DNA from: an uncultured Rhodospirillaceae bacterium | Lineage (GTDB): Bacteria; Pseudomonadota; Alphaproteobacteria; UBA9219 | Direction: 5' to 3' | Length of the DNA: 64,000 nucleotides | Assembly (NCBI GenBank): GCA_964453225.1 | Contig: CAYVNS010000004.1 | Span: 63,640 to 127,639 of the forward strand | Shown: piece after piece, positions 3,586 through 48,278 of the stretch | Position numbering within the stretch: position 1 is the first letter of the stretch | Layout of the letters: each line of letters starts with the position of its first letter | Program-made: the position numbers and the translations under genes | Notes under the pieces: model-generated | Databases searched by the model: none | What the model was told of the DNA's origin: nothing | The model's input: only the letters and a program-made list of their open reading frames with translations

Positions 3586-4638
3586 ATGCAGCCATACTTT
3601 TCGCGGCGACAAGTGATCGGCGGCATTGGCGCCGGATTGACGACTATGGCCGCCCTGCCCACTCTGGCGCAATCCGTTTCCTCGGGCTTGCCTTCGGGAA
3701 CAACATCTTTCGGCGGGCTGTCGTCGGGAACGGCAGCGCCGGGCGCACCGCCGACGCCGCCTCTTGTCAATCCTGTTTCAAAATACCCGCATCCGCCGTT
3801 TAAAAAACAGCAGCAGCCTTGGCCGGGCCTTGCAAGCAAAATGGAGCCGCGCCCTGACCATGGCGAGCAAAGCTATCGCGGCGCCAACAGGCTTGCGGGG
3901 CGAAAGGCGCTGATCACCGGCGGGGATTCAGGCATGGGACGCGCGGCGGCCATTGCCTATGCGCGCGAAGGCGCCGACGTCGTGATCAATTACCTTCCGG
4001 CCGAGGAGCAAGACGCGCTTGAAGTAATAGATTTGATCAAAGCGGCGGGGCGCAAGGGCGTCGCGCTTCCCGGCGATATTCGCGATGAGGCCTTCTGCAA
4101 AAAACTGGTGGCCGATGCGGTGCAGGGCCTTGGCGGACTGGATATTCTTGTTTGCAATGCGGGCCGCCAACAAGCGCGGCAATCCATTCTCGACATTTCC
4201 ACGGAAGATTTCGACGCCACGATGAAAACCAATATCTATGCGCCTTTCTGGATTATCAAGGCGGCCCTGCCCCATTTGAAGCCCGGCTCCGTCATTATCG
4301 GAACGGCATCGGTTCAGGCTTACGATCCGTCGCCCGATCTTTACGACTATGCGCAAACCAAGGCGGCGACGATGAATTATGTGAAGTCGCTGGCGAAGCA
4401 GCTCGGCCCTAAAGGCATCCGCGTCAACGGAGTCGCTCCCGGCCCGGTTTGGACTCCCTTACAGATAAGCGGCGGCGCGACGCAAGAGCATGTGGAAAAA
4501 TTCGGGGCCAAGACACCCTTCGGCAGACCGGGACAGCCGGCGGAATTGGCGTCGATTTATGTTCAGCTTGCACGCGATGATGCCAGTTTCGCGAACGGCC
4601 AGATTTACGGCGCGGCGGGCGGTTCGGGCCAGCCTTAA
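3586..4638 (+). CDS. SDR-family oxidoreductase (YghA/YhxC-like) with a predicted N-terminal twin-arginine (Tat) signal peptide
   Basis: The SD sequence aaaagggagg precedes the ATG at 3586. The N-terminus is MQPYFSRRQVIGGIGAGLTTMAALPTLAQS, followed by a Gly/Ser/Pro linker. The SDR core has ALITGGDSGMGRA (TGxxxGxG), NAG and YxxxK (YAQTKAA). Confidence 0.8.
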   Translation: MQPYFSRRQVIGGIGAGLTTMAALPTLAQSVSSGLPSGTTSFGGLSSGTAAPGAPPTPPLVNPVSKYPHPPFKKQQQPWPGLASKMEPRPDHGEQSYRGANRLAGRKALITGGDSGMGRAAAIAYAREGADVVINYLPAEEQDALEVIDLIKAAGRKGVALPGDIRDEAFCKKLVADAVQGLGGLDILVCNAGRQQARQSILDISTEDFDATMKTNIYAPFWIIKAALPHLKPGSVIIGTASVQAYDPSPDLYDYAQTKAATMNYVKSLAKQLGPKGIRVNGVAPGPVWTPLQISGGATQEHVEKFGAKTPFGRPGQPAELASIYVQLARDDASFANGQIYGAAGGSGQP

Positions 4639-4659
4639 CAGGAAACAGGTGGTCATACT

Positions 4660-5136
4660 ATGGCAGCGCGTCCTTATTGGAGAGGCCATATACGAATCTC
4701 TCTTGTCTCGTTCCCCGTCGCGCTCATCAGCGCCTTGCGGCGGAGCAGCCAGATCAAGCTTCATGAAATCGACCGCGCGACCGGCGAGCGCATTCATCAT
4801 CGCAACGTCAATGAGGAAGGCAAGGAAGTCGATCGCGAAGAGATTATCAAAGCCTATGACACGGGCGATGGCATAGTGGAGCTTGAGCCGCAGGAGATCG
4901 CGGACATCAAACTGCCTTCCAGCGACATGCTGGCGCTGGATACGTTCGTGAAGATCGACGACATTCCCATTGCCCTTTACGAGCGCCCCTATTTCGTATT
5001 CAGGCGCATATCCAAAACGGCATCGTTCGATTGCTCACGCGCCATAATAAGGACTGGACGGAAAAATATCCCAACATCGCAAGCCAACTTGCCCGGCTGG
5101 GCGTGGACAATGCCCTTCTGGACGGCGAGATCGTAA
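4660..5136 (+). pseudogene. ku: Ku (NHEJ DNA-end-binding protein) remnant; only about the first 113 codons are Ku-like, then the reading runs out of frame into ligD sequence
   Basis: MAARPYWRGHIRISLVSFPV...LYERPYFV is a typical bacterial Ku N-terminus. Full-length Ku is ~260-300 aa. After about nt 4998 the translation (FRRISKTASFD...) has no Ku character. Confidence 0.7.
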
Positions 5137-6740
5137 GCGTTGCGGACGATGGCACCATGTCGTTTCACGGCATGCAAAATCCGCTTGGCAAAGGAAGGCA
5201 GGAGCGGCTGCATTATTATCTTTTTGATGCGTTGTTTCTTAATGGCGAACCTTTGACCGGGTTGCCGCTGTCCGAGCGGAAAGAAAAACTGCAAACCCTT
5301 CTGCGCAAGCCGTTGGACTGGATACACTACAGCGAGCATTTCGAGGGGCCCGGCGACAAGATGCTGGCCAAGCTTTGCTCTATGGCGATGGAGGGCGTGG
5401 TCTCGAAGCGGCTCGGCAAGCCTTACTATTCAGGGCGCAACGAATATTGGCTGAAATCGAAATGCGTCAAGGAGCAGGAGCTGGTTATCGGCGGATTTAC
5501 GACGCAACCCAAACATCCCGCCATGCTCGCGGCTTTACTGATGGGCTATTACAAGGGCGGCGATTTACTTTTTGCCGGAAAGGTCGGCACCGGCTTTTCC
5601 CAAAGCGAGGGGGTGGCGCTCCTCAAACGCTTGCGCAAGATTGAGCGCAAAACGCCGTCCTTCAAAAACATATCCACCGCCGCCAAACGCGGCGCAACAT
5701 GGGTTCAGCCGGAACTGGTTGCGCAAGTCCACTTTTTCGAATGGACGCCTGACGGCTCGATGCGCCATCCTTCCTTTCAGGGCTTGCGCGAAGACAAACC
5801 GGCCAAGGAAGTCGTGATGGAAAAGCCGAAACCCGCAGAGACCGTCGACCCGACCGATCCCCCTCTTGCAAGATCGGGGGGCAAGCGCGAGACGATGGCC
5901 GGCGTTTCGGTTTCCCACCCCGACAAAATGCTTTATCCCGGCGCGACGATTACGAAACGCGAATTGATAGCCTATTACGAAAAGGTTGCGCCGTTGATGC
6001 TGCCGCATATTGTGGGAAGGCCGATCAGCCTTGTGCGTTGCCCGCAAGGCGAAGGAAAGCCGTGCTTTTTCCAGCGGCACGGCATCGATATGTTCACGCC
6101 CAAGGTCAAGCCCGTCTTTGTCGGCGCGGAAAAAGAAGCCTATCTGATGATCGAGGATCTGGCGGGCCTGATATCGCTTGTACAGATGAACGCGCTTGAA
6201 ATTCATACGTGGAACGCGACGGCAGACGCTATCGACAAGCCGGATCAGTTTGTTTTAGACCTCGACCCCGGGCCGGACGTGCCTTTCGAGGCCGTTAAAA
6301 AAGCCGCTTCGGACATTCGCGACAATTTAAAAAAAGCGAAGCTCACCTCATTCCTGAAAACAACCGGCGGCAAAGGTCTTCACGTCGTTGTGCCCATCGA
6401 TCGAGGACCAAGCTGGGACGAGGTCAAGAATTTCACGCGGCTGTTTGCGCAAACCATGGTCGACTTCTCGCCCGACAGGTTCACGTCCAACAGTCGCAAG
6501 AACAAGCGCACGGGAAAAATATATATCGACTATCTACGCAACGGGAAGGGCGCAAGCGCCATCGCCCCCTACTCGACCCGCGCCAAACCCGGCGCGCCCG
6601 TCGCCATGCCCTTGGCGTGGCGCGATATGGCCTCGTTAAAAACCGCGCAGGATTTTACCATTGAACACGCGTCGAGACTTCGCCGTTCAGACCCATGGAA
6701 GGAGATGAAGAAAATTAAACAGACATTACCAAGTGTTTAA
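4992..6740 (+). pseudogene. ligD: ATP-dependent DNA ligase LigD, 5'-truncated: ligase domain without its adenylation-lysine motif, plus an intact-looking primase/polymerase domain
   Basis: The frame reads FRIQAHIQNGIVRLLTRHNKDWTEKYP...LDGEIV. This is the segment that follows the KxDGYR adenylation motif in LigD ligase domains. The C-terminal half (SHPDKMLYP...LVRCPQGEGKPCFFQRH...) is the LigD polymerase domain. There is no upstream KxDG and no phosphoesterase domain. Confidence 0.7.
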
Positions 6741-6833
6741 TAACCGCGCGTTTCTTTTCATAAAACGGTTAGCATAAGGAACTTATTAATAAAATATGCC
6801 GATACTTTTCCCTTCACGATAAAAGGGGAAGTT

Positions 6834-8291
6834 ATGATCGGCCTCGCTGGCATTTTCTTGGCTTTGTGCCTGATGATCTACTTGGCTTACCGCGGCATTT
6901 CGGTTCTTGTTCTGGCGCCGGCCTTGGCCCTGCTTGCCGCTTTGTTCGCCGGGGAAAGCACGCTTCTCGCCATTTATACGCAAATTTTTATGAAGGCGAC
7001 CGGCGCTTTTATCATTTCGTTTTTTCCCTTGTTCCTTGCCGGCGCGATTTTCGGCAAATTGATGGACGACAGCGGCGCGGCGCAGACCATCGCCATGTGG
7101 GTCGTCACAAAATTGGGGAAAAAACATGCGATGCTCGCGATTGTCCTTGCTTCCGCCTTACTGACTTATGGCGGCGTTTCTCTTTTCGTTGTCGCCTTTG
7201 CGGTCTATCCGATCGCCACCCATGTCTTTCATCTAAGCAAGATACCGAAACGCCTTTTGCCGGCCACCATTGCGCTTGGGGCCTTCACGTTCACGATGAC
7301 GGCCATGCCCGGCAGCCCCGCCATTCAGAACACCATCCCCACCCCCTATTTTGGAACAACGCCTTTTGCGGCTCCCGTCCTCGGCCTTATCGCCTCGGCG
7401 ATCATGCTGTTGACGGGCTATATCTGGATTCAATCCCAAGCCTTGAAAGCGAAAAAAGCCGGCCAAGGCTACGGACACTGTCACGGCGACAAGATTCATG
7501 ACGTGAATTGGGAAGCGCGCGAACACGCAGAGGCCGAAGGCTTTGATATTATGGAGCTTGATGTCGCCGCCGAAGGGCATCACCGCCGAATATCCCTCGC
7601 GTCGGCTCTCTTGCCGATTATCGTCGTTATCATCGCCAACTTCGCTTTCAGCCAACATATATTGCCTTCGCTTGATTTGAGCTATTTAACCCGACCGGAA
7701 TTCGGCGGCGTAAAGTTATCCGCCGTGTTGGGCGTTTGGTCCACGCTGTCGGCTTTGTTTTTTGGCATCGGCACTCTTGTTGCCCTGAACCGCAACCATT
7801 TTAAGTCCATTCGCCGCAGCATTGACGGCGGTTCGAACGCCTCGGTCCTTCCGGTGTTCAACACGGCGAGCATGGTTGGCTTTGGCGCGGTGATCGCCGG
7901 CCTGCCCGCTTTCGAAATTTTGCGCGATTTCGTTTTGAATATCGGCAACGGAAACGTGCTTGTTTCTTTGGGCGTCGCGGTCAACGTTCTTGCGGGCATT
8001 ACCGGCTCGGCATCCGGCGGCGTTAGCGTTGCCCTGCAGACTTTGGGCAGTCACTACATAGAGGCCGCGAAAGTGGCCGGCATCGATCCGCAACTTCTGC
8101 ACCGCGTAACGAGCATTGCCACCGGCGGGCTGGATACGCTGCCTCATAACGGCGCGGTGATTACGCTGCTGAATATCGCCAATATGACGCATAAAGAAGC
8201 CTACAAAGACATCTTTTTCGCCATCGTGCCCGGCCCCCTTTTCGCGCTGGTCGCGGTTATCGCGCTGGGAACGGCTTTTGGTTCGTTTTAA
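6834..8291 (+). CDS. GntP-family (gluconate/hydroxy-acid:H+ symporter-like) permease
   Basis: A 485-aa polytopic membrane protein. The N-terminus MIGLAGIFLALCLMIYLAYRG and the overall pattern resemble GntP/citrate-transporter superfamily permeases. Confidence 0.65.
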   Translation: MIGLAGIFLALCLMIYLAYRGISVLVLAPALALLAALFAGESTLLAIYTQIFMKATGAFIISFFPLFLAGAIFGKLMDDSGAAQTIAMWVVTKLGKKHAMLAIVLASALLTYGGVSLFVVAFAVYPIATHVFHLSKIPKRLLPATIALGAFTFTMTAMPGSPAIQNTIPTPYFGTTPFAAPVLGLIASAIMLLTGYIWIQSQALKAKKAGQGYGHCHGDKIHDVNWEAREHAEAEGFDIMELDVAAEGHHRRISLASALLPIIVVIIANFAFSQHILPSLDLSYLTRPEFGGVKLSAVLGVWSTLSALFFGIGTLVALNRNHFKSIRRSIDGGSNASVLPVFNTASMVGFGAVIAGLPAFEILRDFVLNIGNGNVLVSLGVAVNVLAGITGSASGGVSVALQTLGSHYIEAAKVAGIDPQLLHRVTSIATGGLDTLPHNGAVITLLNIANMTHKEAYKDIFFAIVPGPLFALVAVIALGTAFGSF

Positions 8292-31275: not shown

Positions 31276-33096
31276 TTAAGCCGAGATCAAAGCCGGCCCC
31301 GTCAACCCGGGCCCGCCGACTTGCGCGTTAAACGGCAGAAGGATCGACTTTGCGGCTTCCTTCGCATCGTCCGAAACCGAAGCAACCTTCGCCTCGGGCG
31401 CTTTCTGAACCTCGGAGGCCTTCATGTAATAGGGCCTATCCGTCTTGGCTTGCGTGGTTCCCTTCGATGCGCTGGCGAAATCGGACTTCAGCGAATCCGA
31501 AGGCCGAAGTACGGCATTGGTCGCCTCTCCGCTCGCATTGAAGTTGACTTGCATGACGCAATCCGCCGTCTTGCAAGGTCCCTTGATGTTCGGCAATTCC
31601 AGATTCGACATCTGTTGCGGCATCATAACGGGATTCTGCATGTACTGGTTCTGCATCGGAACGATGGGAACGGAATGCGTCGGGCCCATTTGATAGGGCT
31701 GCGTCGGCATCTGGTACGACGGCATTTGCTGCTGCGGAACCAGCTGTATAGGCTGCTGCGCAGGAGCGTACGCGGGAGCGGGCTGCTGGTAAGCGGGTGC
31801 CTGCTGCATATAAGCAGGAGCCGAATATGCAGGAGGAGCCTGCGTCGCGGGTGCAGCGGCAGGCGCATAGTGCACAGGGGCCATCGGAGCCGCCGCCGGA
31901 GCAAACTGCACGGGCGTTCCCTGCGGAACAATCTGCGTCGGCGCCACGATCGTCGGCGCGCCGCCGTAAGGAAAATCGCACGCTTCCATTGCGCAGGGGC
32001 TTTGATACACCTGATACGTAACTTGGGGCGGCGGAGGCGGCGCCGGCATATAGACCGGCTTCTCCACAATCACCTGCTTTTCCACGATCACCGGCTTCGC
32101 TTTCACGACCGTTTTCTTGCGATGAACAACCTTGCGCGGTTTCGGCGCATTGCACGACGTGCGCGCCCGAACTTTTTTGCGCACCTGCTTGACAGGTTCT
32201 TTCACGGGTTCCACCACAACCGGCGCCTTCGGCTCCGCTACGGGAACGGTGCGAACAGGCTGTACCTGAACGGGCACAATGATATTGGCGCATTCAGCGC
32301 CGCACACATAAGAAGCCGACGGCGGAACATACATGACGCCGTCGGTCTGCGTAATCGGCGCGGCAATAGAAACGTCAGCGCCAACAATATCGTAAGAAAC
32401 GCCGCCTAAAAGGCCGCCGACCGCGCCGAAGGCAATGCCCTGCAAAGCCAGTCTCCAGCCATATCCCCTCTTGTGGCCTTGCGCCTTGATGCCTTTCGAC
32501 GCGGCGTTCAACACGCCGATCGCGCCGCCGGCAACGGCGCCGATGACAAAGGTGCTGGCATCCATAAGCATGGCGCCGACGTTCGCAATGCCGCCGCCGA
32601 CGATGCCGCAAAGCAAGCCGGTAAGGGCCATCTCGGCCAAAACTTTTGTAAAGAATTGTTTCCTGGCGTAAGGATGAAGCGCGTTGTGGTACCGCATGCG
32701 CACCCAGTGGACCAGCATGCCCGCCAAAAGACCCGCCGAAGCGCAAGCAAGCACGCCAAGAGCCGCCGCATGCAGTCTTTGCGAAGGATCGATCGCCGAA
32801 GCAATCGTTCCCTTGGTCGCAAGCCGGACAACGATCCCAAAAGTGCCGGCCAGCCAGAATTCGGCGGAATGCATATACTCTTCCGCGCGCACAATAGCCT
32901 TGGCGACTTTTTTGTTAGCCGTCTTTGCCGCCGGAGCTTTTTTAGCAAAAAGGCTTTGCTTAAGCTTCAGCACGAAGGCCGGGAAGAAAGAAGGCAAAAG
33001 CATATCCTCATCGCGCACGTCTTCCAAACGAAGATACCCCTCATCCGTTTTCTTGCGCGCCGAGCCGCGGTTCAGCTTAAAATTGGCCGATGACAT
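31276..33096 (-). CDS. Hypothetical membrane protein with Gly-zipper helices, a Lys/Val/Pro-rich segment and a long Pro/Gln/Ala/Tyr-rich low-complexity region
   Basis: A 606-aa ORF. The TM cluster runs roughly aa 85-240. KPV/VEK repeats are followed by APAY/QQP-type repeats. The antisense ORFs here are composition artefacts. Confidence 0.55.
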   Translation of the reverse strand: MSSANFKLNRGSARKKTDEGYLRLEDVRDEDMLLPSFFPAFVLKLKQSLFAKKAPAAKTANKKVAKAIVRAEEYMHSAEFWLAGTFGIVVRLATKGTIASAIDPSQRLHAAALGVLACASAGLLAGMLVHWVRMRYHNALHPYARKQFFTKVLAEMALTGLLCGIVGGGIANVGAMLMDASTFVIGAVAGGAIGVLNAASKGIKAQGHKRGYGWRLALQGIAFGAVGGLLGGVSYDIVGADVSIAAPITQTDGVMYVPPSASYVCGAECANIIVPVQVQPVRTVPVAEPKAPVVVEPVKEPVKQVRKKVRARTSCNAPKPRKVVHRKKTVVKAKPVIVEKQVIVEKPVYMPAPPPPPQVTYQVYQSPCAMEACDFPYGGAPTIVAPTQIVPQGTPVQFAPAAAPMAPVHYAPAAAPATQAPPAYSAPAYMQQAPAYQQPAPAYAPAQQPIQLVPQQQMPSYQMPTQPYQMGPTHSVPIVPMQNQYMQNPVMMPQQMSNLELPNIKGPCKTADCVMQVNFNASGEATNAVLRPSDSLKSDFASASKGTTQAKTDRPYYMKASEVQKAPEAKVASVSDDAKEAAKSILLPFNAQVGGPGLTGPALISA

Positions 33097-34022: not shown

Positions 34023-35801
34023 TCACGATGAGCGCTTTACGTCGTCCAGGAAAGTCTGAACTTCGTCACGCAGACGGGCCGCCTGCTTCGATAATTCCTC
34101 GGAAGCTTGCAGCACTTTATCGGCGCCTTTGTGGGATTCCGACGCCGCGCTCGTGACTTTAACGATATTGCTGGACACCTCGTTCGTCCCCACCGTGGCC
34201 TGCTGCACGTTGTTCGAAATTTCGCGCGTCGCCTCGGTCTGCTGCTGAATGGCCTTCGCAATCGTTTCAGAAATTTCGCTGATATGCCCGATAATATCCC
34301 CAATGGAGCGAATGGCATTCGCCGCCTCAAGCGACACGCTTTGCACCGTGCTTATCTTCTTCGAAATCTCCTCGGTCGCCCGCCCGGTCTGGTTCGCCAG
34401 ATTCTTCACTTCGCTCGCCACCACGGCAAAGCCCTTGCCTGCCTCCCCGGCGCGCGCCGCTTCAATCGTGGCGTTCAAGGCGAGCAAATTCGTTTGCGCC
34501 GCAATGTCCTGAATCAGCTTCACGACGTCGCCAATCTGCGCCGCCGCCTCCGACAAGACAGAGACTGTCGTGTTCGTCCGCTTCACTTCGTCCACGGCGT
34601 TCATCGCCACTTGCGCCGACTCTTCGACCTGCCGATTGATCTCGCCGATGGAGGCCGACAATTCCTCGGCCGCCGACGCGACCGTCTGCACGCTGACGGA
34701 TGCCTGCTCGGTCGCGGCCGCCACGGCCGACGACTGACGGCTCGTCTGGTCCGCCATGTCCGATAAATTTTGCGCGCTTGTCTGCAACTCTGTCGCTTCG
34801 GAAGCCAGAACGCTGACGATGCCGCCGACGCTGTTATTGAAGTTATCGGCCAGCCTGCCCAATTCCCTCTGTTTCTTTTCCGCCGCCTGCTTTTTCTTTT
34901 CTTCCTCTTCGGCGGCCTTGTTCAACTGGATGGAAATGGTCTTGAAGCAATCCAGAAGCCGCGCGATCTTGCCGTACGAATCCGGCTGATCGAGATAAGG
35001 AACGACGGTATCCAGATCGTCCGCCGCCACGTGCGACATGGTTTCCAGAATAACCCTTAAACGCCTTGACTTGGATTCCAGCGAAACGGCGAGCCAGGCC
35101 GTTATGCCGAAACCTACCACCGACACAATCGCCAGAGCCGTGGATCCCGCGCCCATCCATGGGCCGACGACGCCGATTAAAAAAAACGCAATCAACGCCG
35201 CAATCAGCGTTCGGGATAGTATTTCGAAAGAAACCGTAAACTTGGCGTGGCGATCATGCGCCATAACGGGGTTCTTGCCCATGACCCCAATGACGCGACG
35301 CGCAAGCGTGAGAGACTCCGCCGATGTTTTCGGCCCGGGGATAATCTTGACGTCCAAAGCCGTCAGCGGCGGATAGGCGAAAACCATGCCCATGAATTTA
35401 TCGGGCGCCTTGATGTTTTTTGAAAGCGTTGAAATGGAAAGATTAACGGTGTTCGACGCAATGACAATTTCCGAGCCGCAAGCCGCGCGAATCTTCGAAT
35501 GAATAACGGCTTTGACCTCGGCATTTTCAAACACGACCTCGATGCAAAAACGGCATGTGCGCAGAAGGCCGAAATCAACGCCCGTTGTCATGCGCGATAG
35601 AATCAAATCGCGGCCCTCGGCCGTCAAATTCCCCTTCGCGACTTTCTGATCCAGATTTTCCGAGATGAACTGGCGCGCGACGACCAACGATTTTAACCTC
35701 ACGTCCACAAGAACGACGTTAAGGCCCGCTTCAATAGCGACCTGAGCCATGCCGCTGCCCATTCGGCCCGCACCGACAATGCCTATTGTTTCCCCGGACA
35801 T
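34023..35801 (-). CDS. Methyl-accepting chemotaxis protein (paralogue A) with an N-terminal 3-hydroxyacyl-CoA dehydrogenase-like NAD(H)-binding domain, a 2-TM hairpin and HAMP
   Basis: The N-terminus IGIVGAGRMGSGMAQ...VVLVDV...ASNTVNLSIS...FMGMVFAYPP...DVKIIPG aligns by eye with Hbd/HADH N-domains. Hydrophobic helices lie at about aa 195-245. A HAMP-like stretch is MSHVAADDLDTVVPYLDQPDSYGKIARLL. The MCP hairpin tip is QTNLLALNATIEAARAGEAGKGFAVVASEVKNLA. Confidence 0.85.
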   Translation of the reverse strand: MSGETIGIVGAGRMGSGMAQVAIEAGLNVVLVDVRLKSLVVARQFISENLDQKVAKGNLTAEGRDLILSRMTTGVDFGLLRTCRFCIEVVFENAEVKAVIHSKIRAACGSEIVIASNTVNLSISTLSKNIKAPDKFMGMVFAYPPLTALDVKIIPGPKTSAESLTLARRVIGVMGKNPVMAHDRHAKFTVSFEILSRTLIAALIAFFLIGVVGPWMGAGSTALAIVSVVGFGITAWLAVSLESKSRRLRVILETMSHVAADDLDTVVPYLDQPDSYGKIARLLDCFKTISIQLNKAAEEEEKKKQAAEKKQRELGRLADNFNNSVGGIVSVLASEATELQTSAQNLSDMADQTSRQSSAVAAATEQASVSVQTVASAAEELSASIGEINRQVEESAQVAMNAVDEVKRTNTTVSVLSEAAAQIGDVVKLIQDIAAQTNLLALNATIEAARAGEAGKGFAVVASEVKNLANQTGRATEEISKKISTVQSVSLEAANAIRSIGDIIGHISEISETIAKAIQQQTEATREISNNVQQATVGTNEVSSNIVKVTSAASESHKGADKVLQASEELSKQAARLRDEVQTFLDDVKRSS

Positions 35802-36068
35802 CCCGCGAACCCCCTTATTGAGGTAGAATCGGAAAAGCAGTTAAGGAACATACTATTGGGTGATAACTATTTAATTAATGATTAATGATAAGTTATAAAT
35901 TGCTTAATAATAACAAGGATTGGAATAATATTATCATACATGCTTCGGTGTCAAAGCAAGATGCTTCCAATATGGACGGATCGCGGTCTAAAGCGGAATT
36001 TCGTGACATTGAATTCGAACTAGCCGCACCCGATCATGCCGAACCAAGCCATTTTTTAGAATGAAGCC

Positions 36069-37838
36069 TTAGGTTCTGACCTCGTCAAGGAAAGCCTGAA
36101 CCTCGGCGCGCAGGCGTTCGGCCTGTTTCGACAAGTCGTTCGACGCATGCAACACGGTTTCGGCGCCTTTATGGGATTCCGACGCCGCGCTCGTGACCTT
36201 AACGATATTGCTGGACACCTCGTTCGTCCCCACCGTGGCCTGCTGCACATTGTTCGAAATTTCGCGCGTCGCCTCGGTCTGCTGCTGAATGGCGCGCGCA
36301 ATCGTTTCGGATATTTCGCTTATGCGTTCAATGATGTTTCCGATTGAGCGAATGGCATTCGCCGCCTCAAGCGACACGCTTTGCACCGTGCTTATCTTCT
36401 TCGAAATCTCCTCGGTCGCCCGCCCGGTCTGGTTCGCCAGATTCTTCACTTCGCTCGCCACCACGGCAAAGCCCTTGCCTGCCTCCCCGGCGCGCGCCGC
36501 TTCAATCGTGGCGTTCAAGGCGAGCAAATTCGTTTGCGCCGCAATGTCCTGAATCAGCTTCACGACGTCGCCAATCTGCGCCGCCGCCTCCGACAAGACA
36601 GAGACTGTCGTGTTCGTCCGCTTCACTTCGTCCACGGCGTTCATCGCCACTTGCGCCGACTCTTCGACCTGCCGATTGATCTCGCCGATGGAGGCCGACA
36701 ATTCCTCGGCCGCCGACGCGACCGTCTGCACGCTGACGGATGCCTGCTCGGTCGCGGCCGCCACGGCCGACGACTGACGGCTCGTCTGGTCCGCCATGTC
36801 CGATAAATTTTGCGCGCTTGTCTGCAACTCTGTCGCTTCGGAAGCCAGAACGCTGACGATGCCGCCGACGCTGTTATTGAAGTTATCGGCCAGCCTGCCC
36901 AATTCCCTCTGTTTCTTTTCCGCCGCCTGCTTTTTCTTTTCTTCCTCTTCGGCGGCCTTGTTCAACTGGATGGAAATGGTCTTGAAGCAATCCAGAAGCC
37001 GCGCGATCTTGCCGTACGAATCCGGCTGATCGAGATAAGGAACGACGGTATCCAGATCGTCCGCCGCCACGTGCCCCATCGCGATAAGCAAGTTCGACAT
37101 GCGTCTCGTTCTCTTTTCCATAAGGATGGCGAGGGTGGCCGCAAATCCCATCCCCAAAAGGGAAAGCGTTTGCGCAAGCTTGCCCAGATTCATCTCGTCG
37201 GCGGCAAAATTAAAGCCGAGAAGCAAAAACATAACGGCGAAAATGGAGCGCGAAACGACTTCGAACGGCATATGAAATTGCGCTTTGCGGTCGGGAGCCA
37301 ACACGGGGTTCTTGCCCATGGCGCGCACCGCCTTCTTGGCGAGGGTCGCCGCGTCGGCGGACGTTTTCGGCCCGGGGATAAGCTTGACGTCCAAAGCCGT
37401 CAGCGGCGGATAGGCGAAAACTATGCCCATGAAACGATCCGGCGATCTGATGTTTTTCGATAGCGTTGAAATGGGAAGATTAACGGTGTTCGACGCAATG
37501 ACAATTTCCGAGCCGCAAGCCTCGCGAATTTTCGAATGAATAACGCCTTTGACTTCGGCGTTTTCAAGCACGACCTCGATGCAGAAGCTGCAACGGCGCA
37601 GGAGGTTGAAATCCGTGCCCGTCGTAATGCGGGAGAGGATGGCATTCCGCTCGTCGGGCGATAGGTCTCCCCCGGCCACCCGTTGATCCAGATTTTCGAC
37701 AATCATCTGCTGCGCAAACGCCAGCGATTTAAGCCTGACATCCACAAGTACGACCTGAGCGCCCGCTTCGGCCCCGGCTTGGGCCATGCCGCTGCCCATT
37801 CTTCCGGCCCCAACGATACCGATAATTTCATCTGACAT
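36069..37838 (-). CDS. Methyl-accepting chemotaxis protein (paralogue B) with the same dehydrogenase-like N-domain / TM hairpin / HAMP / MCP architecture
   Basis: The motifs match paralogue A: IGIVGAGRMGSGMAQ, FMGIVFAYPP and DVKLIPG. The TM region is diverged. The central 243 codons are nucleotide-identical to paralogue A. Confidence 0.85.
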   Translation of the reverse strand: MSDEIIGIVGAGRMGSGMAQAGAEAGAQVVLVDVRLKSLAFAQQMIVENLDQRVAGGDLSPDERNAILSRITTGTDFNLLRRCSFCIEVVLENAEVKGVIHSKIREACGSEIVIASNTVNLPISTLSKNIRSPDRFMGIVFAYPPLTALDVKLIPGPKTSADAATLAKKAVRAMGKNPVLAPDRKAQFHMPFEVVSRSIFAVMFLLLGFNFAADEMNLGKLAQTLSLLGMGFAATLAILMEKRTRRMSNLLIAMGHVAADDLDTVVPYLDQPDSYGKIARLLDCFKTISIQLNKAAEEEEKKKQAAEKKQRELGRLADNFNNSVGGIVSVLASEATELQTSAQNLSDMADQTSRQSSAVAAATEQASVSVQTVASAAEELSASIGEINRQVEESAQVAMNAVDEVKRTNTTVSVLSEAAAQIGDVVKLIQDIAAQTNLLALNATIEAARAGEAGKGFAVVASEVKNLANQTGRATEEISKKISTVQSVSLEAANAIRSIGNIIERISEISETIARAIQQQTEATREISNNVQQATVGTNEVSSNIVKVTSAASESHKGAETVLHASNDLSKQAERLRAEVQAFLDEVRT

Positions 37839-38115
37839 TAGTGCCTCTTGCTATTTCACATTAAAGCTACTTCGCGAACAATACGCAGGCGAATCCGAAA
37901 GATAGTGCATATGGAATAAAGCCTTAAATGGTTAATACTCGGTAAAATTGGCGGGTAATAAAATGCTTCTTAGGGAAAGGCAGGAGCGCCCCTGTCCGCG
38001 ACCGCGTGCATATAATAATGCTCAAGCGCGAGGGTTCACATTTTCGACATGCGTATGCCCCCTCTCGCCGCCGAGCGGAGCGCACATTCGCTAAAAAAAA
38101 GGGGGGGGGCGATCT

Positions 38116-38430
38116 TTATATAGATCCGGCTGCAAGCCGCACTTTCAACCCATCCAGATCTTTTGTGAAGACAATCTGGCAGGCAAGGCGCGAATCCGGC
38201 GTTACGTCGAACGCGCTGTCCAGCATCGCGATCTCCTCTTCGGTTGGCTCCGGCACCTTGGCTTTCCACGCGGGATCAAGATAGACATGACAGGTCGCGC
38301 ACGCGCACGAGCCGCCGCATTGCGCGAGAATGGGAACCCCGCCTTCACGGATAATTTCCATCAGCGTCCACTCTTCGGTCGCCTCGAGTTCGTGGTCTTT
38401 GCCGTCCATGTCGGTCATAATGATCTTCAT
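38116..38430 (-). CDS. [2Fe-2S] ferredoxin, adrenodoxin/putidaredoxin type
   Basis: The cluster ligands fit CGGSCACATCHV plus a downstream Cys (RLACQ). At 104 aa the size is right. Confidence 0.85.
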   Translation of the reverse strand: MKIIMTDMDGKDHELEATEEWTLMEIIREGGVPILAQCGGSCACATCHVYLDPAWKAKVPEPTEEEIAMLDSAFDVTPDSRLACQIVFTKDLDGLKVRLAAGSI

Positions 38431-38456
38431 ATATCTCTCTCTTTTTATAGTTAGGC

Positions 38457-39659
<1,203 letters not shown>

Positions 39660-39878: not shown

Positions 39879-40664
39879 CTAGGCGCCGGTGAATTTGGGC
39901 TCCCGCTTGGATATATAAGCCTTCATCGCTTCCTTGAAATCAAAGGTTTTCGACCCGATGGTCGTCCATGTGGTTGCTTCCTGCGACAAATGGCTGGACA
40001 AATCTTGCTCGAAAGCCCGGCCTATTAATCTCTTTGTTGCGCCGAGAATGCGCGTCGCGCCGGTGGCGAGTTTTTCCGCGAAAGCCATCCCTTCGTCATG
40101 CAAAGCGCCGGCTTCGACAATTTTATTCACAAGCCCCCATTTTTCCGCAAGCTCCGCCGGCATATCCTCGTTGAGCATCAGAATTTCATTCGCTTTGGCC
40201 GCGCCGACCTTGCGCGGAAGAAAGAAAGTCGCGCCGCCGTCGGGAATCATGCCGTAAGAGGTGAACCCGGGATTGAAAACCGTTCCTTTTGCGGCGACGA
40301 TAAAATCGCTGGCGAGAGCAAGGCTATACCCCGATCCCGAAACGAATCCTTCCGCCAGGGAAATCACGGGGCGCTCCATAAGCTGCAACTCGCGAACGAC
40401 CGCATAAAAGAATTGCACGCGCATGAAGATTTGTTCCTGAACGGCGTTGGCGTCGCCCGTAAAGCCGTTCATATCCTGGCCCTGCATGAAAACGCCGCCA
40501 GCGCCTTTCATCACAAGGGCGCGCAAGCTTCGGTCTTCGCTTATGTCCTTCAGTTTCTCGCTGAACGTTTTCGCCATCGAGGTCGTCAGCGCATTTCCTT
40601 TTTCGGGACAATTAAATGTCACGATAAAAACGCCGTTCTTCGCTTCAAACGATATGTCCGCCAT
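39879..40664 (-). CDS. Enoyl-CoA hydratase/isomerase (crotonase) family protein
   Basis: MADISFEAKNGVFIVTFNCPEKGNAL...GAGGVFMQGQDM...GFVSGSGYSLALASD is the crotonase-fold pattern. Confidence 0.85.
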   Translation of the reverse strand: MADISFEAKNGVFIVTFNCPEKGNALTTSMAKTFSEKLKDISEDRSLRALVMKGAGGVFMQGQDMNGFTGDANAVQEQIFMRVQFFYAVVRELQLMERPVISLAEGFVSGSGYSLALASDFIVAAKGTVFNPGFTSYGMIPDGGATFFLPRKVGAAKANEILMLNEDMPAELAEKWGLVNKIVEAGALHDEGMAFAEKLATGATRILGATKRLIGRAFEQDLSSHLSQEATTWTTIGSKTFDFKEAMKAYISKREPKFTGA

Positions 40665-40761
40665 AGCTGTGCTCCTCAAAAAACGATACGCGGCATCATA
40701 GGGAAGACAAAGAAAATTGCAAAGCCCTTCCCTTTCCGGCGCGAGAGGCTAGAATCGAGGA

Positions 40762-44176: not shown

Positions 44177-45562
44177 ATGTCATCACTTTTCGCAGCTTTA
44201 GGCGTTGCCGTGTCGGGTCTTGGCGCGCAATCGGCGTCCATCGGCAACATTTCCGACAATCTGGCCAACGCCGAAACGACCGGCTACAAAAGCATCTCCA
44301 CCAGCTTTCAAACGCTCGTCACATCGTCCAATGCCGAAAGCAACAGCCCCGGCGGCGTCAAGGCGAAGCCCTGTTACCAAAACGACGTTCAGGGCAATAT
44401 CGAGACCACAGCCACGACCACAAACATCGCCATTTCCGGCCAAGGCTTCTTCCAGGTCACAAGCGCAACGCAGGACACGGCGGGCGACACGGTTTTTACG
44501 GGAAACAAATATTACACGCGCAACGGCGACTTCACGCTGAACAAAGACGGCTATATGGTCAACAGCGCGGGCTATTATCTGGAAGGCTACCCCATCACGA
44601 ACGACGCGGTCGACAGCTCGGAAGCCGTCCCGATGCAAATTTCCTCCCAGCTCGACAAGCCGCAAGCGTCGACCACCATATCCTATATCGCCAATCTTCC
44701 GGCAGGCGTCACGGGCTACACCTCCACGGCGTCGACGGTCGACATCTACGACGCGGTCGGCAAAACGCATACGGCAAGCATTGTTTGGGAGAAGACCTCC
44801 ACCGTCAACGTCTGGCGCGGCACGGTTACGGTCGCGGAAGCAGGCGGCAGCACGGACGCGATCTACGAGGCTGTTTTCGATGTCACGTTTAACGGCACGT
44901 CGAACATCGGAACGATCGACAGCATCGCGGGCGTCAGTTCGCGATACGTCAATGCGTCGACCGGGGTCATAACGAGCCTTGGCGCGCCGGTTATTCCGAG
45001 CGGAACCACGGCGGCCGTGACCTTGGGCCGATCCGTCGATCCGGCTCACACGGGGAACCTGCTTGATTTCAGCGCCACGGGCGGCGGCGCGCAGTCCATT
45101 AGCCTGGATTTCGGCACCTACGATACGGCCGACGGCCTCACTCAATACGCCAACACGTCGTCGACGGTTTCCGTGTCGTCCATTTCGCAAGACGGTTTCG
45201 CGACCGGTTCGTTCAGCAGCATAAGCATCGATAACGGCGGCATCGTCGCGATCAACTATACGAACGGCAGCACAAAGCGCATTTACCAGGTTCCGCTCGC
45301 CTCGTTCAACTCGCCCAACAACTTGCAGCGCAACACGGGCGGCGTCTATTCATCCACGCTGGGCTCGGGAAGCGCCAATTTGCACACGGCGGGAACGTAC
45401 GGCGTCGGCACGATGACCAGCAGCTCTCTCGAAGCGTCGGACGTCGATATCGCCAATGAATTTACGACGATGATCGTCGCGCAGCAGATCTATTCGGCGA
45501 ACGCCAAAGTCGTGACGAGCGTCAACAGCATGCTGAATACGATTATTCAGGCGGTTCAATAA
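44177..45562 (+). CDS. flgE: Flagellar hook protein FlgE
   Basis: The N-terminus SGLGAQSASIGNISDNLANAETTGYK and C-terminus DIANEFTTMIVAQQIYSANAKV are conserved rod/hook termini. Confidence 0.9.
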   Translation: MSSLFAALGVAVSGLGAQSASIGNISDNLANAETTGYKSISTSFQTLVTSSNAESNSPGGVKAKPCYQNDVQGNIETTATTTNIAISGQGFFQVTSATQDTAGDTVFTGNKYYTRNGDFTLNKDGYMVNSAGYYLEGYPITNDAVDSSEAVPMQISSQLDKPQASTTISYIANLPAGVTGYTSTASTVDIYDAVGKTHTASIVWEKTSTVNVWRGTVTVAEAGGSTDAIYEAVFDVTFNGTSNIGTIDSIAGVSSRYVNASTGVITSLGAPVIPSGTTAAVTLGRSVDPAHTGNLLDFSATGGGAQSISLDFGTYDTADGLTQYANTSSTVSVSSISQDGFATGSFSSISIDNGGIVAINYTNGSTKRIYQVPLASFNSPNNLQRNTGGVYSSTLGSGSANLHTAGTYGVGTMTSSSLEASDVDIANEFTTMIVAQQIYSANAKVVTSVNSMLNTIIQAVQ

Positions 45563-45619
45563 TCATCGGCTGCCTGCCGGGGATGATCTCCGGCGCGGCG
45601 GCAGATTTGGGAGCAGTTC

Positions 45620-47077
45620 ATGTCGCTATCCACGGCTCTTAATGTGGCTCTGTCGGGCCTTCAAACCAGCACGGCCGTGGCTCAGGTGGTGGCGGGCAAT
45701 ATTGCGAATGCGCAAACGGAAGGCTTTACGGCGAAAAGCGTCAGCCTTTCCCAAGTGTCGGCGGGCGCGAACACGGGCGGCGTCGAAATTGCGAACTACA
45801 TACGCGCGACGAACGACGTTCTAACGGCGACCGCCAACACGGCCACGACGACCGCCGCCTATTATGAAACCCAGAACAGCTATATGACGCAGATCCAGGC
45901 GACGCTCGACTCGACTGGAAATCCGCCGGCCCTTTCCGAAAAGCTCAGCGCTTTTCAGGCGGCATGGACGGAGTTCGACGCGAATCCCAGCAGCCCGACG
46001 CAGGCGCAAATGATCGTGAGCGCGGGCGTGAGCCTTGCCAACCTCGTTCGAACCGTTGCGCTGCAAACGGCGACGATGGAAACGAACGTGAAGGCGGATC
46101 TGGCCACCGCCGTTTCGGAATTGAATACCGCGCTTGGCAAAATCGTGACGCTTAACCAGGAAATCGCCATCGCGCGCGCCAACAAACAGCCGATTGTGAA
46201 TTTGCAGGACGAACGCGACGCCGCCGTGAGCGTCGTCGCAAAGTATACGAACGCCACGGTTATGGAGCGGGATAACGAACAAATCGCTCTTTATACCAGA
46301 AACGGCACATGCCTTTTGGACGCGCAGGCGCAAACCTTTAGCGTCGACACCGACGGAGTCACGATCCTCAGCACATCGGGGCAGGACGTAACGTCAAGCC
46401 TCTCCGACGGCAAGCTGCAAGCGCAGACGGACTTTCTGGCCGAAACGGCGACGTCCGCAAACGGGGTCGGCGTCATCACAAAGCTGAAATCCCAGTTGCA
46501 GAATTTCGCCAACCTGTTTCTGGCGACGACGCCGGGCGGCGGAAGCTTCGCCGACGCCTATAACAGCGCCACGACCGACACGGGCGAGCAAGCGAACAAC
46601 TTTTTCACGGCGACCATCACCGCATCGACGGGCATGCCGCAGCTCGATACCTTTCAGGTCAACGCAAACCTCGTCAACGGAACCGCAACGGTAAAAAAAG
46701 CCTCCGCAGAGCCGATCAGCAACGCGTTCGCCGCCACGAACGCCGCCATCCGGGTTGTCAGCGTCTCGCCGCCGGTTTACGCGACCACCAGCACCTTCAC
46801 CGCGTCCGGCATAACGCTGCAAAACCTAACCTTTTCGGGCATCGCCACGGGAATCCTGTCGGGATTCCAGCAAGCCGCAAATACGATCAAGGATCAAACC
46901 AATACCGCCACGACGCAAAGGGATTACTACAAAAATTCCCTGTCCAACGAAACGGGCGTCAACACGGACGAAGAGCTGATCAACCTGTCGAATTGGGAGA
47001 ACAGCTATGCGGCATCGGCGCATGTCATTTCCACGATCCAGCAGATGATGGATGTCCTGCAACAAATGGTGAGCTGA
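45620..47077 (+). CDS. flgK: Flagellar hook-associated protein 1 FlgK
   Basis: MSLSTALNVALSGLQTS...GNIANAQTEGF and the C-terminus EELINLSNWENSYAASA. Its position between flgE and flgL agrees. Confidence 0.85.
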   Translation: MSLSTALNVALSGLQTSTAVAQVVAGNIANAQTEGFTAKSVSLSQVSAGANTGGVEIANYIRATNDVLTATANTATTTAAYYETQNSYMTQIQATLDSTGNPPALSEKLSAFQAAWTEFDANPSSPTQAQMIVSAGVSLANLVRTVALQTATMETNVKADLATAVSELNTALGKIVTLNQEIAIARANKQPIVNLQDERDAAVSVVAKYTNATVMERDNEQIALYTRNGTCLLDAQAQTFSVDTDGVTILSTSGQDVTSSLSDGKLQAQTDFLAETATSANGVGVITKLKSQLQNFANLFLATTPGGGSFADAYNSATTDTGEQANNFFTATITASTGMPQLDTFQVNANLVNGTATVKKASAEPISNAFAATNAAIRVVSVSPPVYATTSTFTASGITLQNLTFSGIATGILSGFQQAANTIKDQTNTATTQRDYYKNSLSNETGVNTDEELINLSNWENSYAASAHVISTIQQMMDVLQQMVS

Positions 47078-47078
47078 C

Positions 47079-48278
47079 ATGAAAGTTTCCATTAGCAATA
47101 TCGGCCGCACCGCCAGCATGGTCTCCGCGCTTCAGGCCGAGCAGTCGACCCTGACCAAGCTGTCGGAGCAGCTTGCCTCGCAGAAAAGAAATACTGATCT
47201 GACCGATTACACGGCCAGCGAAGCCATGAGCCTTGTGAATTTACAGGCTTCCGCGACGCAGAAGGAAGCGTACCTGAACATCATCTCCTCGGTAAGCAAC
47301 AATCTGTCGATTTACGATACGACGTTGACGGATCTTGAAAACATCGCCACGCAGGCGCAAAGCCTCGCCAACGGCAATCCCAACTACTCGGCCGACATCG
47401 CCCTGAACGTCAGCGTTCAGGCGACGAATTATTTAAAGTCCGTGTCCGTCGATCTGAACCAGAACATCAACAACCGGTACCTTTTCTCCGGCGCCCGCTA
47501 TACGACGCAGCCCGTGCAGGATTTATCGCAACTGCCCGCCGCCACGCTGTCGTCAACCCTTGTCACGGCCCCGACCGTGCCGGTCTACGATGTGGCTGCA
47601 TCGCTCTACTTCTCCGTCGCGGGGCAAGCGATCACCATGAACGGAGCGGTGGGCACAGGCCAAACGGCTTCGATGACCGTCAACGGCGCGACGTATACGC
47701 ACGCCGTGTTGCCTGCGGATACACCGGCGACGATTATGGCGGACTTCAGCGCGCAACTCACGGCGGCGGGAGTCGCCCATACGCTGGCAGGCCCCACCAT
47801 CACGGTAGGCGCCGGCAGCACGATCAACGCCTGGGGCGTGCCGACAACGAACGCCGCCTCTTATGTGGAAGATCACGCCAAGGTGGATACCGGCTACACC
47901 GTCGACTACGGCATTACGAGCAACGAGTCGTCCTTTCAGGAACTGATCGCAGGATTGCGCTATCTTCAAGCGGCAGGAAATGCGACCGACGCCGCGACCT
48001 ATCAGGCCAATATGAGTCAAGCGGCCTCGCTGTTAACCTCCGCCCTCAGCCATATGCAAACCCTGCACACCACGATTGCGAACAATATCAGCATCATGGA
48101 CACGCAAAAAAAGGCGCAGGCGAACTCGCTCAATAGCCTTGCCGATCAGGTCTACGACATCCAGCAAGTCGACATTACGCAGGTCAGCGCGGAAATCACG
48201 GCTCTGGAAGCGCTCCTGCAAGCCTCCTATTCCGCGACCGGCGGAATCCTGAAGTTGTCTATCATAAGTTATCTCTAG
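47079..48278 (+). CDS. flgL: Flagellar hook-associated protein 3 FlgL (flagellin-like)
   Basis: The start overlaps the flgK stop. It has flagellin-like N- and C-terminal heptad regions (LQAEQSTLTKLSEQLAS..., ITALEALLQASYSA). Confidence 0.7.
   Translation: MKVSISNIGRTASMVSALQAEQSTLTKLSEQLASQKRNTDLTDYTASEAMSLVNLQASATQKEAYLNIISSVSNNLSIYDTTLTDLENIATQAQSLANGNPNYSADIALNVSVQATNYLKSVSVDLNQNINNRYLFSGARYTTQPVQDLSQLPAATLSSTLVTAPTVPVYDVAASLYFSVAGQAITMNGAVGTGQTASMTVNGATYTHAVLPADTPATIMADFSAQLTAAGVAHTLAGPTITVGAGSTINAWGVPTTNAASYVEDHAKVDTGYTVDYGITSNESSFQELIAGLRYLQAAGNATDAATYQANMSQAASLLTSALSHMQTLHTTIANNISIMDTQKKAQANSLNSLADQVYDIQQVDITQVSAEITALEALLQASYSATGGILKLSIISYL

Follow-up and report, generated by a model that had tools for sequence, protein, structure and literature searches.

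What does a chemotaxis receptor perceive when its input domain descends from a metabolic enzyme? The question is raised by two adjacent genes, here called p1 and p2, on a 64,000-nucleotide stretch of contig CAYVNS010000004.1 from an uncultured Rhodospirillaceae bacterium; this whole stretch is referred to as the window, and coordinates are those of the window unless another locus is named. The gene products are membrane-anchored methyl-accepting chemotaxis proteins (MCPs), and the one candidate for their input is a cytoplasmic, non-catalytic domain descended from the nicotinamide adenine dinucleotide (NAD)-binding domain of 3-hydroxyacyl- or 3-hydroxybutyryl-coenzyme A (CoA) dehydrogenase (HADH and Hbd respectively). 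An original prediction, made from the letters of the sequence, had given the coordinates correctly; both open reading frames (ORFs) lie on the minus strand, and the proteins are 592 and 589 amino acids (aa) long, rather than 590 each.

Domain architecture

The two receptor genes, both on the minus strand, comprise the following parts (the basis of each is given in brackets; TM, transmembrane segment; AF2, AlphaFold 2).

34023..35801 (-): receptor gene p1, 592 aa, 3HCDH_N - 2 TM - HAMP - MCPsignal (ORF and Pfam)
35253..35789 (-): p1 sensor, aa 5-183, degenerate HADH/Hbd N-terminal NAD-binding Rossmann domain (Pfam, AF2, Foldseek, residue table)
35073..35225 (-): p1 membrane hairpin, aa ~193-243, TM1, 8-aa loop and TM2 (Kyte-Doolittle scan, AF2 helices)
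34908..35069 (-): p1 divergent HAMP, aa ~245-298, AADDL...DSYG (sub-threshold Pfam, homologue P0012, AF2)
34026..34907 (-): p1 MCP kinase-control (signalling) domain, hairpin tip at Glu453 (Pfam, PDB matches, motif scan)
36069..37838 (-): receptor gene p2, 589 aa, architecture as in p1 (ORF and Pfam)
37296..37823 (-): p2 sensor, aa 6-181, degenerate 3HCDH_N (Pfam, residue table)
37113..37265 (-): p2 membrane hairpin, aa ~192-242, amino-acid identity to p1 here just 31% (hydropathy, p1/p2 comparison)
36948..37109 (-): p2 divergent HAMP, aa ~244-297 (alignment with p1)
36072..36947 (-): p2 MCP signalling domain, tip at Glu452 (Pfam MCPsignal, motif scan)

The two proteins were 81% identical. Both matched the Pfam model 3HCDH_N (PF02737), with E-values of 1.5e-37 for p1 and 1.6e-37 for p2; the match covered 179 of 180 model positions in p1 (residues 5-183) and 176 of 180 in p2 (6-181). 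The MCPsignal model was matched at 2.9e-31 (109.1 bits) and 1.3e-33 (116.7 bits) respectively, against a cut-off of 34.6 bits, and E-values of this order exclude chance similarity for either domain. HAMP was the third family anticipated by the original prediction, but it scored beneath the cut-off of 25 bits in p1 (17.5) and p2 (12). In P0012, another member of the family, it passed with 29.6 bits; both characteristic motifs, A-x-D-D-L and D-x-x-G, were present. The HAMP segment AADDL...LDCFKTI was exactly the same in p2 as in p1, while the preceding AS1 helix differed. Neither protein had a Pfam match to the C-terminal domain of HADH (3HCDH, PF00725), whose absence had been foreseen, and no PAS family occurred among their matches at E <= 1.

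Many NCBIfam models for Hbd, PaaH and FadB were matched, over the first ~180 model positions only; the best score was 125.6 bits against a cut-off of 408, and every curated Hbd/HADH equivalog cut-off was far from being reached. The 3HCDH_N match of the sensor scored ~130 bits in Pfam, versus ~200-215 for the single-domain enzymes scanned.

Structural modelling supported the whole-length resemblance to Hbd/HADH that the original prediction had aligned by eye. The AF2 model (p1 residues 1-299, with a six-sequence family alignment as input) had a mean predicted local distance difference test score (pLDDT) of 86, with values mostly between 83 and 95 in the sensor domain. When it was compared with the PDB using Foldseek, the top 50 listed matches were all Hbd, HADH or FadB. 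The best of these was 6aa8 (E 2.7e-19, probability 1.0), with a TM-score of 0.59; the score is normalised to all 299 residues of the query, and the sensor domain accounts for ~62% of these.

Loss of catalysis and retention of the cofactor site

Residues of the sensors were compared with the enzymes in classical HADH numbering, using a human HADH sequence verified against PDB 1f0y. The positions below have the same numbers in p1 and p2.

HADH Ser137: Val119, lost
HADH His158: Val140, lost
HADH Phe160: Ala142, lost
HADH Asn161: Tyr143, lost
HADH Glu170: Lys152, lost
HADH Asn208: no counterpart, belonging to the first helix of the missing C-terminal domain, lost
HADH Gly22, Gly24 and Gly27: Gly10, Gly12 and Gly15, kept
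HADH Asp45: Asp33, kept
HADH Glu106: Glu88, kept
HADH Glu110: Glu92, kept
HADH Lys115: Lys97, kept
HADH Asn135: Asn117, kept

All of the motifs quoted in the original prediction were present, with GxGxxG and the NAD-selecting Asp intact. The substitutions on which it had turned (His to Val, Glu to Lys, and NTVN in place of NTSS) were real when aligned with M. tuberculosis FadB, human HADH and other Hbd enzymes; in the first of these alignments, GIHFFSP, LVEII and SNTS of the enzyme stood opposite GMVFAYP, DVKII and SNTV of the sensor. The catalytic set was not intact, since Ser137, His158, Glu170 and Asn161 were all replaced and Asn208 lay in the missing C-terminal domain; the change from Asn161 to Tyr was additional to those first noticed. 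The catalytic motif of Hbd is HxFxPxxxMxLxE (PMC11476959), and the titles of PDB entries for HADH mutants (S137C, N208S, E170Q and E110Q) confirm that these positions have been studied mechanistically.

Ligand contacts are described for the Hbd of F. prausnitzii, where NAD+ is held by the GxGxxG loop, Met11, Asp31, Glu90, Lys95, Asn115, Ser117 and Phe138, while acetoacetyl-CoA is contacted by Ser117, His136, Asn186 (in the C-terminal domain), the backbone of Asn139, Lys54/Lys56 and Arg143; the C-terminal domain closes over the cleft upon substrate binding (PMC11476959). Mapped by motif onto the sensors, six of the eight NAD contacts were kept, and the two lost (Ser117 and Phe138) were those at the nicotinamide end. 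Every substrate contact that could be scored was lost (Ser117, His136, Asn139, Arg143 and Asn186), Lys54/Lys56 being unmappable. It follows from this mapping that the ADP-ribose half of the site (ADP, adenosine diphosphate) was preserved, and that the nicotinamide/substrate half was rebuilt.

The same evidence bears on the suggestion, offered in the original prediction beside NAD(H), that the ancestral cleft senses an intermediate of beta-oxidation or polyhydroxybutyrate metabolism, such as 3-hydroxyacyl-CoA or acetoacetyl-CoA. The domain does descend from Hbd/HADH, and an enoyl-CoA hydratase gene is situated ~2 kb upstream, both in the window and in the closest relative (locus L006). But this gene is separated from the receptors by genes for ferredoxin and an FNR-like protein, and is syntenic in that relative only, no other member having it as a neighbour. 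Canonical acyl-CoA sensing is very unlikely because the scorable substrate contacts have gone (in the case of Asn139 this concerns the side chain, while the enzyme uses the backbone), as has the C-terminal domain that provides the other wall of the acyl-CoA cleft; this half of the original suggestion was weakened accordingly.

Across 22 members of the family, counted from extracted full-length ORFs, Ser137, His158, Asn161 and Glu170 were replaced without exception, while Gly22, Gly24, Gly27, Asp45 and the ribose-binding Lys115 and Asn135 were invariant, and Glu110, likewise ribose-binding, was either Glu or Asp. Positions 137 and 158 ranged over Val, Leu, Ile, Ala, Thr, Met and Arg; position 170, by comparison, was Lys in 21 members and Arg in one, Asn161 had become Tyr or Phe, and Phe160 had become Ala or Gly. 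Lys at the Glu170 position was found in 95% of sensors and in none (0%) of 123 enzyme domains, and the clearest sensor-specific switches relative to these enzymes were Lys152, Pro145, Cys86, Lys37 and Phe77. Arg13, in the GxGRxG loop, was a further candidate for such a switch, being present in 1% of enzymes, yet it was rejected; it is probably ancestral, because the nearest true enzymes (P0002 and P0004) carry it. The catalytically dead state is a family trait, and pseudo-enzyme sensor is the right description of the domain, given that degeneracy was kept in all 22 members and that the domain is under purifying selection (see below).

Judging from the residues retained, the sensor is likely still to bind NAD(H) through the intact ADP-ribose half (GxGxxG, Met14, Asp33, Glu92, Lys97 and Asn117); this is not certain, because the nicotinamide side of the pocket was rebuilt, with the loss of Ser137 and Phe160. 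A rebuilt pocket might alternatively hold a different ligand: ADP-ribose, the phosphorylated dinucleotide NADP(H), CoA, ADP, or a small anionic metabolite placed beside a permanent NAD and held by Lys152, in which case it is this metabolite, rather than the NADH/NAD+ ratio, that the receptor would report. The nicotinamide/substrate half has been systematically remodelled, rather than relaxed, and its conserved new residues (Lys152 in 21 of 22, Tyr/Phe at 161, Ala/Gly at 160, Pro145 and Cys86) suggest a new specificity. Variability at positions 137 and 158, on the other hand, resembles the filling of a pocket more than a precise new site; Asp33 speaks against NADP, and the genomic context points to no candidate. 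A change of ligand is unlikely on balance.

Membrane topology and the signalling domain

The original prediction had placed sensor and output together in the cytoplasm, linked by a membrane hairpin, and the same arrangement is predicted here from hydropathy, the positive-inside distribution and AF2 secondary structure. Hydrophobic segments of p1 were located at ~198-214 and ~223-239, spaced by 8 residues (13 residues in p2), with clusters of Lys and Arg on both outer flanks of the hairpin in each protein; hydropathy revealed no N-terminal hydrophobic segment in either. In the AF2 model, the beta-alpha-beta core of the sensor (5-180) was followed by a helix at 192-215 (TM1) and another at 220-259 (TM2 continuing into AS1 of the HAMP domain), then by a connector and a helix at 275-298 (AS2), such that the HAMP region was a helix-connector-helix over 245-298. 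A hairpin with a loop of 6-16 residues was present in 13 of 13 scorable family members. TM1 began ~10-15 aa past the last strand of the sensor domain.

Within the signalling domain, the hairpin-tip motif LALNATIEAARAGEAGKGFAVVA aligned to the structures of Tm1143, Tsr and Aer. Measured from the tip (Glu453), the C-terminal arm was 137-139 residues long in nearly all complete members scored, and 142 in one; no C-terminal pentapeptide was found on the scored receptors. Comparison with Tsr gave an excess of 7 residues in the C-terminal arm and 11 in the N-terminal arm, or approximately one extra heptad per arm, which as a rough estimate suggests the 38H class. Methylation-type motifs of the form Glx-Glx-x-x-Ala-Ser/Thr were identified in p1 at aa 379 (EELSAS) and aa 520 (QQTEAT), as motif matches only.

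Distribution and evolution of the family

The size of the family was estimated from two surveys. In one, residues 1-293 of p1 were the query for an exhaustive HMMER comparison with 1.84 billion representative proteins; the other was a scan of GTDB with one genome per species. The judgement that these receptors are rare rests on both; protein word-index searches overlooked known members, and absence from those was weak evidence. The HMMER search returned 11,890 matches at E <= 1e-3, only seven of them below 1e-30. P0010, P0011 and P0012 (595-598 aa) combined 3HCDH_N with MCPsignal, and P0001 was a receptor gene of the same type, split by a frameshift. The GTDB scan produced 16 loci in which the sensor, TM and HAMP regions were matched together, all from metagenome-assembled genomes (MAGs), labelled as (uncultured) Rhodospirillaceae in ten cases, Alphaproteobacteria in four and Bdellovibrionales in two; its remaining matches were ordinary hbd genes, matched over residues ~4-183 only. 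In total the family comprised ~20 sequences, and all of the relatives recovered came from MAGs or metagenome contigs, with none from a cultured organism. No public name was attached to the cluster members looked up, while JGI calls the fragment P0163 'methyl-accepting chemotaxis protein'. The two members labelled Bdellovibrionales (L010 and L018) may reflect mislabelling, a binning error or horizontal transfer.

One might suppose that hbd and mcp had been joined by an error of assembly or annotation, or that an enzyme-receptor fusion retains residual or altered dehydrogenase activity. The homology itself invites this explanation, and nothing further does. Approximately 20 independent assemblies share one uninterrupted ORF of ~590 aa, the catalytic residues and C-terminal domain are missing from every member, and NCBIfam scores fall far short of the Hbd equivalog cut-offs, as in the example already given (125.6 versus 408 bits). 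This explanation is accordingly extremely improbable.

Sensor domains formed a single clade within the Hbd enzymes in a neighbour-joining tree, in 100 of 100 bootstrap replicates. Between orthologues, the ratio of non-synonymous to synonymous substitution (dN/dS) was 0.10-0.11 for the sensor and ~0.065 for the signalling domain, these values being approximate since dS exceeded 1. On the strength of the single clade and the low dN/dS, the pseudo-enzyme domain is read as a functional module that arose once and has been maintained since.

Some matches of ~590 aa were considered as instances of the degenerate sensor joined to other outputs, and were rejected as tandem-duplicated, genuine Hbd enzymes. 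Nine proteins of ~550-650 aa (P0013, P0014, P0016, P0018, P0042, P0046, P0053, P0065 and P0083) contained 3HCDH_N plus 3HCDH twice, and were ordinary enzymes that mimic the length of the receptors.

A stand-alone degenerate domain of 200 aa (P0015) was present in two independent metagenomes (L060, 880-1482; L061, 839-1441). It had its own stop codon, carried GMIFDFPP, NVTIV and NSLT, and lacked any TM or MCP part; an unrelated small gene began 5 nt downstream.

The degenerate sensor was not found on kinases, cyclases or other signalling outputs; a profile search built from 22 sequences added only P0163, a truncated MCP, and P0015. That the domain is not shuffled among other signalling proteins would suit a module that senses nothing and serves, for instance, to dock the receptor to a partner in respiration or metabolism, to the membrane or to the array, with NAD in a structural role only. 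The existence of P0015 could be taken in the same sense, and a partner interaction with NADH dehydrogenase I has long been suspected in the Aer literature (PMC2886117). Yet the invariant residues are exactly those that bind the dinucleotide, which a pure scaffold would not need, and no conserved partner gene occurs nearby. A purely structural or docking role is decidedly unlikely.

Gene conversion between the tandem duplicates

The longest run of exact identity between p1 and p2 was 729 nt:

34306..35034 (-): block in p1, exactly identical to the p2 block (longest identical run)
36346..37074 (-): block in p2, partner of the p1 block (longest identical run)

This block started at the end of HAMP AS1 and the connector and ran past the hairpin tip, covering the signalling module only. 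Outside it, the sensors of p1 and p2 had 68-82% nucleotide identity, and the TM hairpins just 47% (31% at the protein level, as listed above). The closest relative, L006, contained an orthologous tandem pair (4016-5785 and 6001-7779) with an identical block of its own, 876 nt long. When the identical block was compared between the window genome and L006, identity was only 81-85%. On its first 60 residues, and again on its TM region, p1 grouped with L006_6001 and p2 with L006_4016; the rest of the sensor was non-discriminating.

As read from these alignments, the duplication is older than the species split and gene conversion has made the signalling modules uniform in each of the two lineages independently, because the N-terminus and TM region group orthologously while each genome has a separate block. 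The sensor and TM regions escaped conversion and stayed distinct between paralogues, a pattern that fits two inputs into one shared output design. By way of speculation, p1 and p2 might form heterodimers.

A tandem arrangement of another sort was seen in the genome of P0010 (L002, 6441-7820), where the receptor immediately follows, on its own strand, a dCache-type MCP whose sensor is unrelated.

Genomic neighbourhood

The window contained a flagellar hook/junction cluster at 44177-48278 on the plus strand, 6-10 kb from the receptors, encoding FlgE and FlgK (6-9 kb away) and a likely FlgL (without a Pfam match); the presence of FlgE and FlgK indicates that the organism is flagellated and motile. 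No che genes were found within the 64-kb window. Upstream of p2 were genes for a 2Fe-2S ferredoxin and an FNR/thioredoxin-reductase-like flavoprotein (38116-39647, minus strand), followed by the enoyl-CoA hydratase (39879-40679, minus strand) mentioned above; downstream of p1 were a lipoprotein-like ORF and a Pro/Ala/Gln-rich ORF of 606 aa.

Conservation of this context was evaluated by searching 21 loci for nine of the neighbouring genes in the window (tblastn), and by inspecting the neighbourhoods of P0010, P0011 and P0012. Synteny with the window was observed only in L006; other members were set amid unrelated housekeeping genes. The enoyl-CoA hydratase, ferredoxin and FNR neighbours were therefore discarded as functional clues, their arrangement being shared with L006 only, and function has to be argued from the anatomy of the protein because genomic context is not conserved.

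Both genes were preceded by a Shine-Dalgarno sequence (AAGGGGG upstream of the p1 ATG, AAGAGG for p2), and both upstream regions were AT-rich. The 267-nt spacer between p2 and p1 contained a sigma-70-like match upstream of p1 (TTGACA-18-TATTAT, 11/12, at 35925..35954 on the minus strand), which came from a consensus scan only and is not evidence of function. An Rfam scan of the window identified three tRNAs only, with no leader RNA near p1 or p2.

Three other features were observed in the window. A C8-T8 homopolymer pair (cccccccctttttttt) was situated upstream of p2 at 38085-38100 (minus strand), directly after the ferredoxin stop codon, with no evident stem-loop. The 606-aa ORF (31276-33096, minus strand), directly downstream of the receptors, was hydrophobic and Gly/Ala-rich in its N-terminal half and very rich in Pro, Ala and Gln in the other; it matched no Pfam model, and was kept beside the receptors in L006 only, at ~50% identity. 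At 5031-6740 (plus strand) was a LigD-type protein of non-homologous end-joining repair, in which a primase-polymerase domain is combined with an ATP-dependent DNA ligase domain.

A proposed mechanism

That a Rossmann domain can read NADH/NAD+ without catalysis is well established for Rex and KTN/RCK proteins, and a pocket that disfavours cationic NAD+ relative to NADH is the principle seen in Rex. By a similar logic, aliphatic residues at 137 and 158, an aromatic residue at 161 and the change from Glu170 to Lys would make the nicotinamide pocket of p1 and p2 non-polar and positively charged, so that neutral NADH should be preferred to cationic NAD+. The place of the cleft-closing C-terminal domain of the enzyme would be taken by TM1 and the HAMP bundle; because they occupy it, the movement of the ligand-binding domain might be coupled to HAMP directly, and changes in the domain that depend on occupancy or redox state could be relayed sideways, or via TM1. 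The change in HAMP would then modulate CheA, steering the flagellated cell along gradients that alter the NADH/NAD+ balance, with methylation-based adaptation accompanying the energy or redox taxis. The paralogues, which have one signalling module but different sensor surfaces and hairpins, may differ in set point or in partners.

That the input is a non-catalytic, NAD(H)-binding domain driving energy or redox taxis is judged to have about an even chance of being correct; we infer it, in the same spirit as the original prediction put it forward. Several observations weigh against it. The preference for NADH would follow from structural reasoning on aligned residues. Contacts on the nicotinamide side (Ser137 and Phe160) are not conserved, so that another ADP-containing ligand, or NAD as a permanent cofactor, could be concerned. 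Isolated Hbd of F. prausnitzii binds NAD+ weakly, with a dissociation constant of 346 uM (PMC11476959). The sensor was not found on other signalling outputs, and hence does not bear the usual mark of a portable module; all relatives in public collections are MAG or metagenome sequences, and the gene neighbourhood is not conserved past the closest relative. The more specific proposal, in which the pseudo-dehydrogenase domain of a new class of energy-taxis receptor gives a direct reading of the cytoplasmic NADH/NAD+ pool and the HAMP/TM bundle replaces the closing C-terminal domain of the enzyme, is more tentative, falling somewhat short of an even chance.

If that proposal were correct, these would be the first chemoreceptors with an input drawn from a dinucleotide-binding enzyme fold, and would connect central redox metabolism with motility directly at the molecular level. 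How bacteria convert respiratory state into swimming decisions has been long debated, and no read-out of metabolism so far would be as direct as a receptor with NAD(H) itself for its ligand. Such a receptor would also show cleanly how a domain of an enzyme can be put to new use as a sensor. Since the N-terminal domain is small, soluble and confidently predicted, it could be tested in vitro and as an E. coli chimera despite its relatives being uncultured, and it might serve as a scaffold for NADH biosensors.

Comparison with known systems

Searches of the literature for 3HCDH_N with chemoreceptors, and for related terms, found no description of such a protein, in line with the original prediction, which had known of no characterised receptor of this type. 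In a large census of the sensor domains of chemoreceptors (PMC8547431 supplements), 3HCDH_N is absent and NAD_binding_3 occurs once. A review of energy taxis from 2010 lists only PAS domains with flavin adenine dinucleotide (PAS-FAD), haem and proton-motive force sensors (PMC2886117), and the words NAD, Rossmann and dehydrogenase are absent from a 2026 review of aerotaxis (PMC13401364). Together, the energy-taxis sensors known from these two reviews are FAD-PAS, haem, zinc and proton-motive force, with an NAD(H)-binding receptor in neither (PMC2886117, PMC13401364). The proteins described here are chemoreceptors with a new class of input domain, undescribed in the literature searched.

Aer of E. 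coli and Aer-like PAS-FAD receptors are the closest in anatomy, as had been proposed: they likewise have an N-terminal cytoplasmic sensor, a hairpin without a periplasmic domain, HAMP and an MCP domain, an order that is predicted for p1 and p2. The job presumed to be shared is the reading of internal redox or energy state. The sensors themselves are not homologous, being PAS-FAD in Aer and a Rossmann pseudo-dehydrogenase in p1 and p2, and the linker between sensor and TM1, which is long in Aer (the F1 segment), is much shorter here at ~10-15 aa. Aer signals laterally from PAS to HAMP (PMC13232288), and the same would be geometrically plausible in p1 and p2. Aer is without adaptive methylation (PMC13232288), whereas p1 and p2 carry consensus methylation motifs.

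The true full-length homologues of the sensor domain are found in enzymes, namely HADH and Hbd (EC 1.1.1.35 / 1.1.1.157), PaaH and the middle domain of FadB (3HCDH_N plus 3HCDH). With these, the sensors share GxGxxG, Asp45, Glu106, Glu110 (as Glu or Asp), Lys115 and Asn135; they differ in having neither the C-terminal dimerisation/substrate domain nor Ser137, His158, Glu170, Asn161 and Asn208, and in being fused to TM and MCP regions. By this comparison of residues, p1 and p2 are homologues of the HADH/Hbd enzyme family and not functional members of it.

In logic, though not by descent through any model matched here, the nearest regulators are Rex and KTN/RCK (TrkA_N), which also employ a non-catalytic, dinucleotide-binding Rossmann domain as a regulatory input. 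Models for Rex_N/CoA_binding and TrkA_N were absent from the Pfam matches of p1 and p2, where 3HCDH_N was the only strong sensor match. The KTN/RCK domain is attached to a membrane protein; the outputs of Rex and KTN are DNA binding or channel gating, and differ from the predicted control of CheA by p1 and p2. NmrA/HSCARG and CtBP offer a further parallel, in that a dehydrogenase fold has been kept for dinucleotide binding and signalling while catalysis was lost or became secondary. They come from other branches of the Rossmann superfamily, the former being SDR-like (short-chain dehydrogenase/reductase) and the latter a D-2-hydroxyacid dehydrogenase; both are soluble eukaryotic regulators, rather than chemoreceptors.

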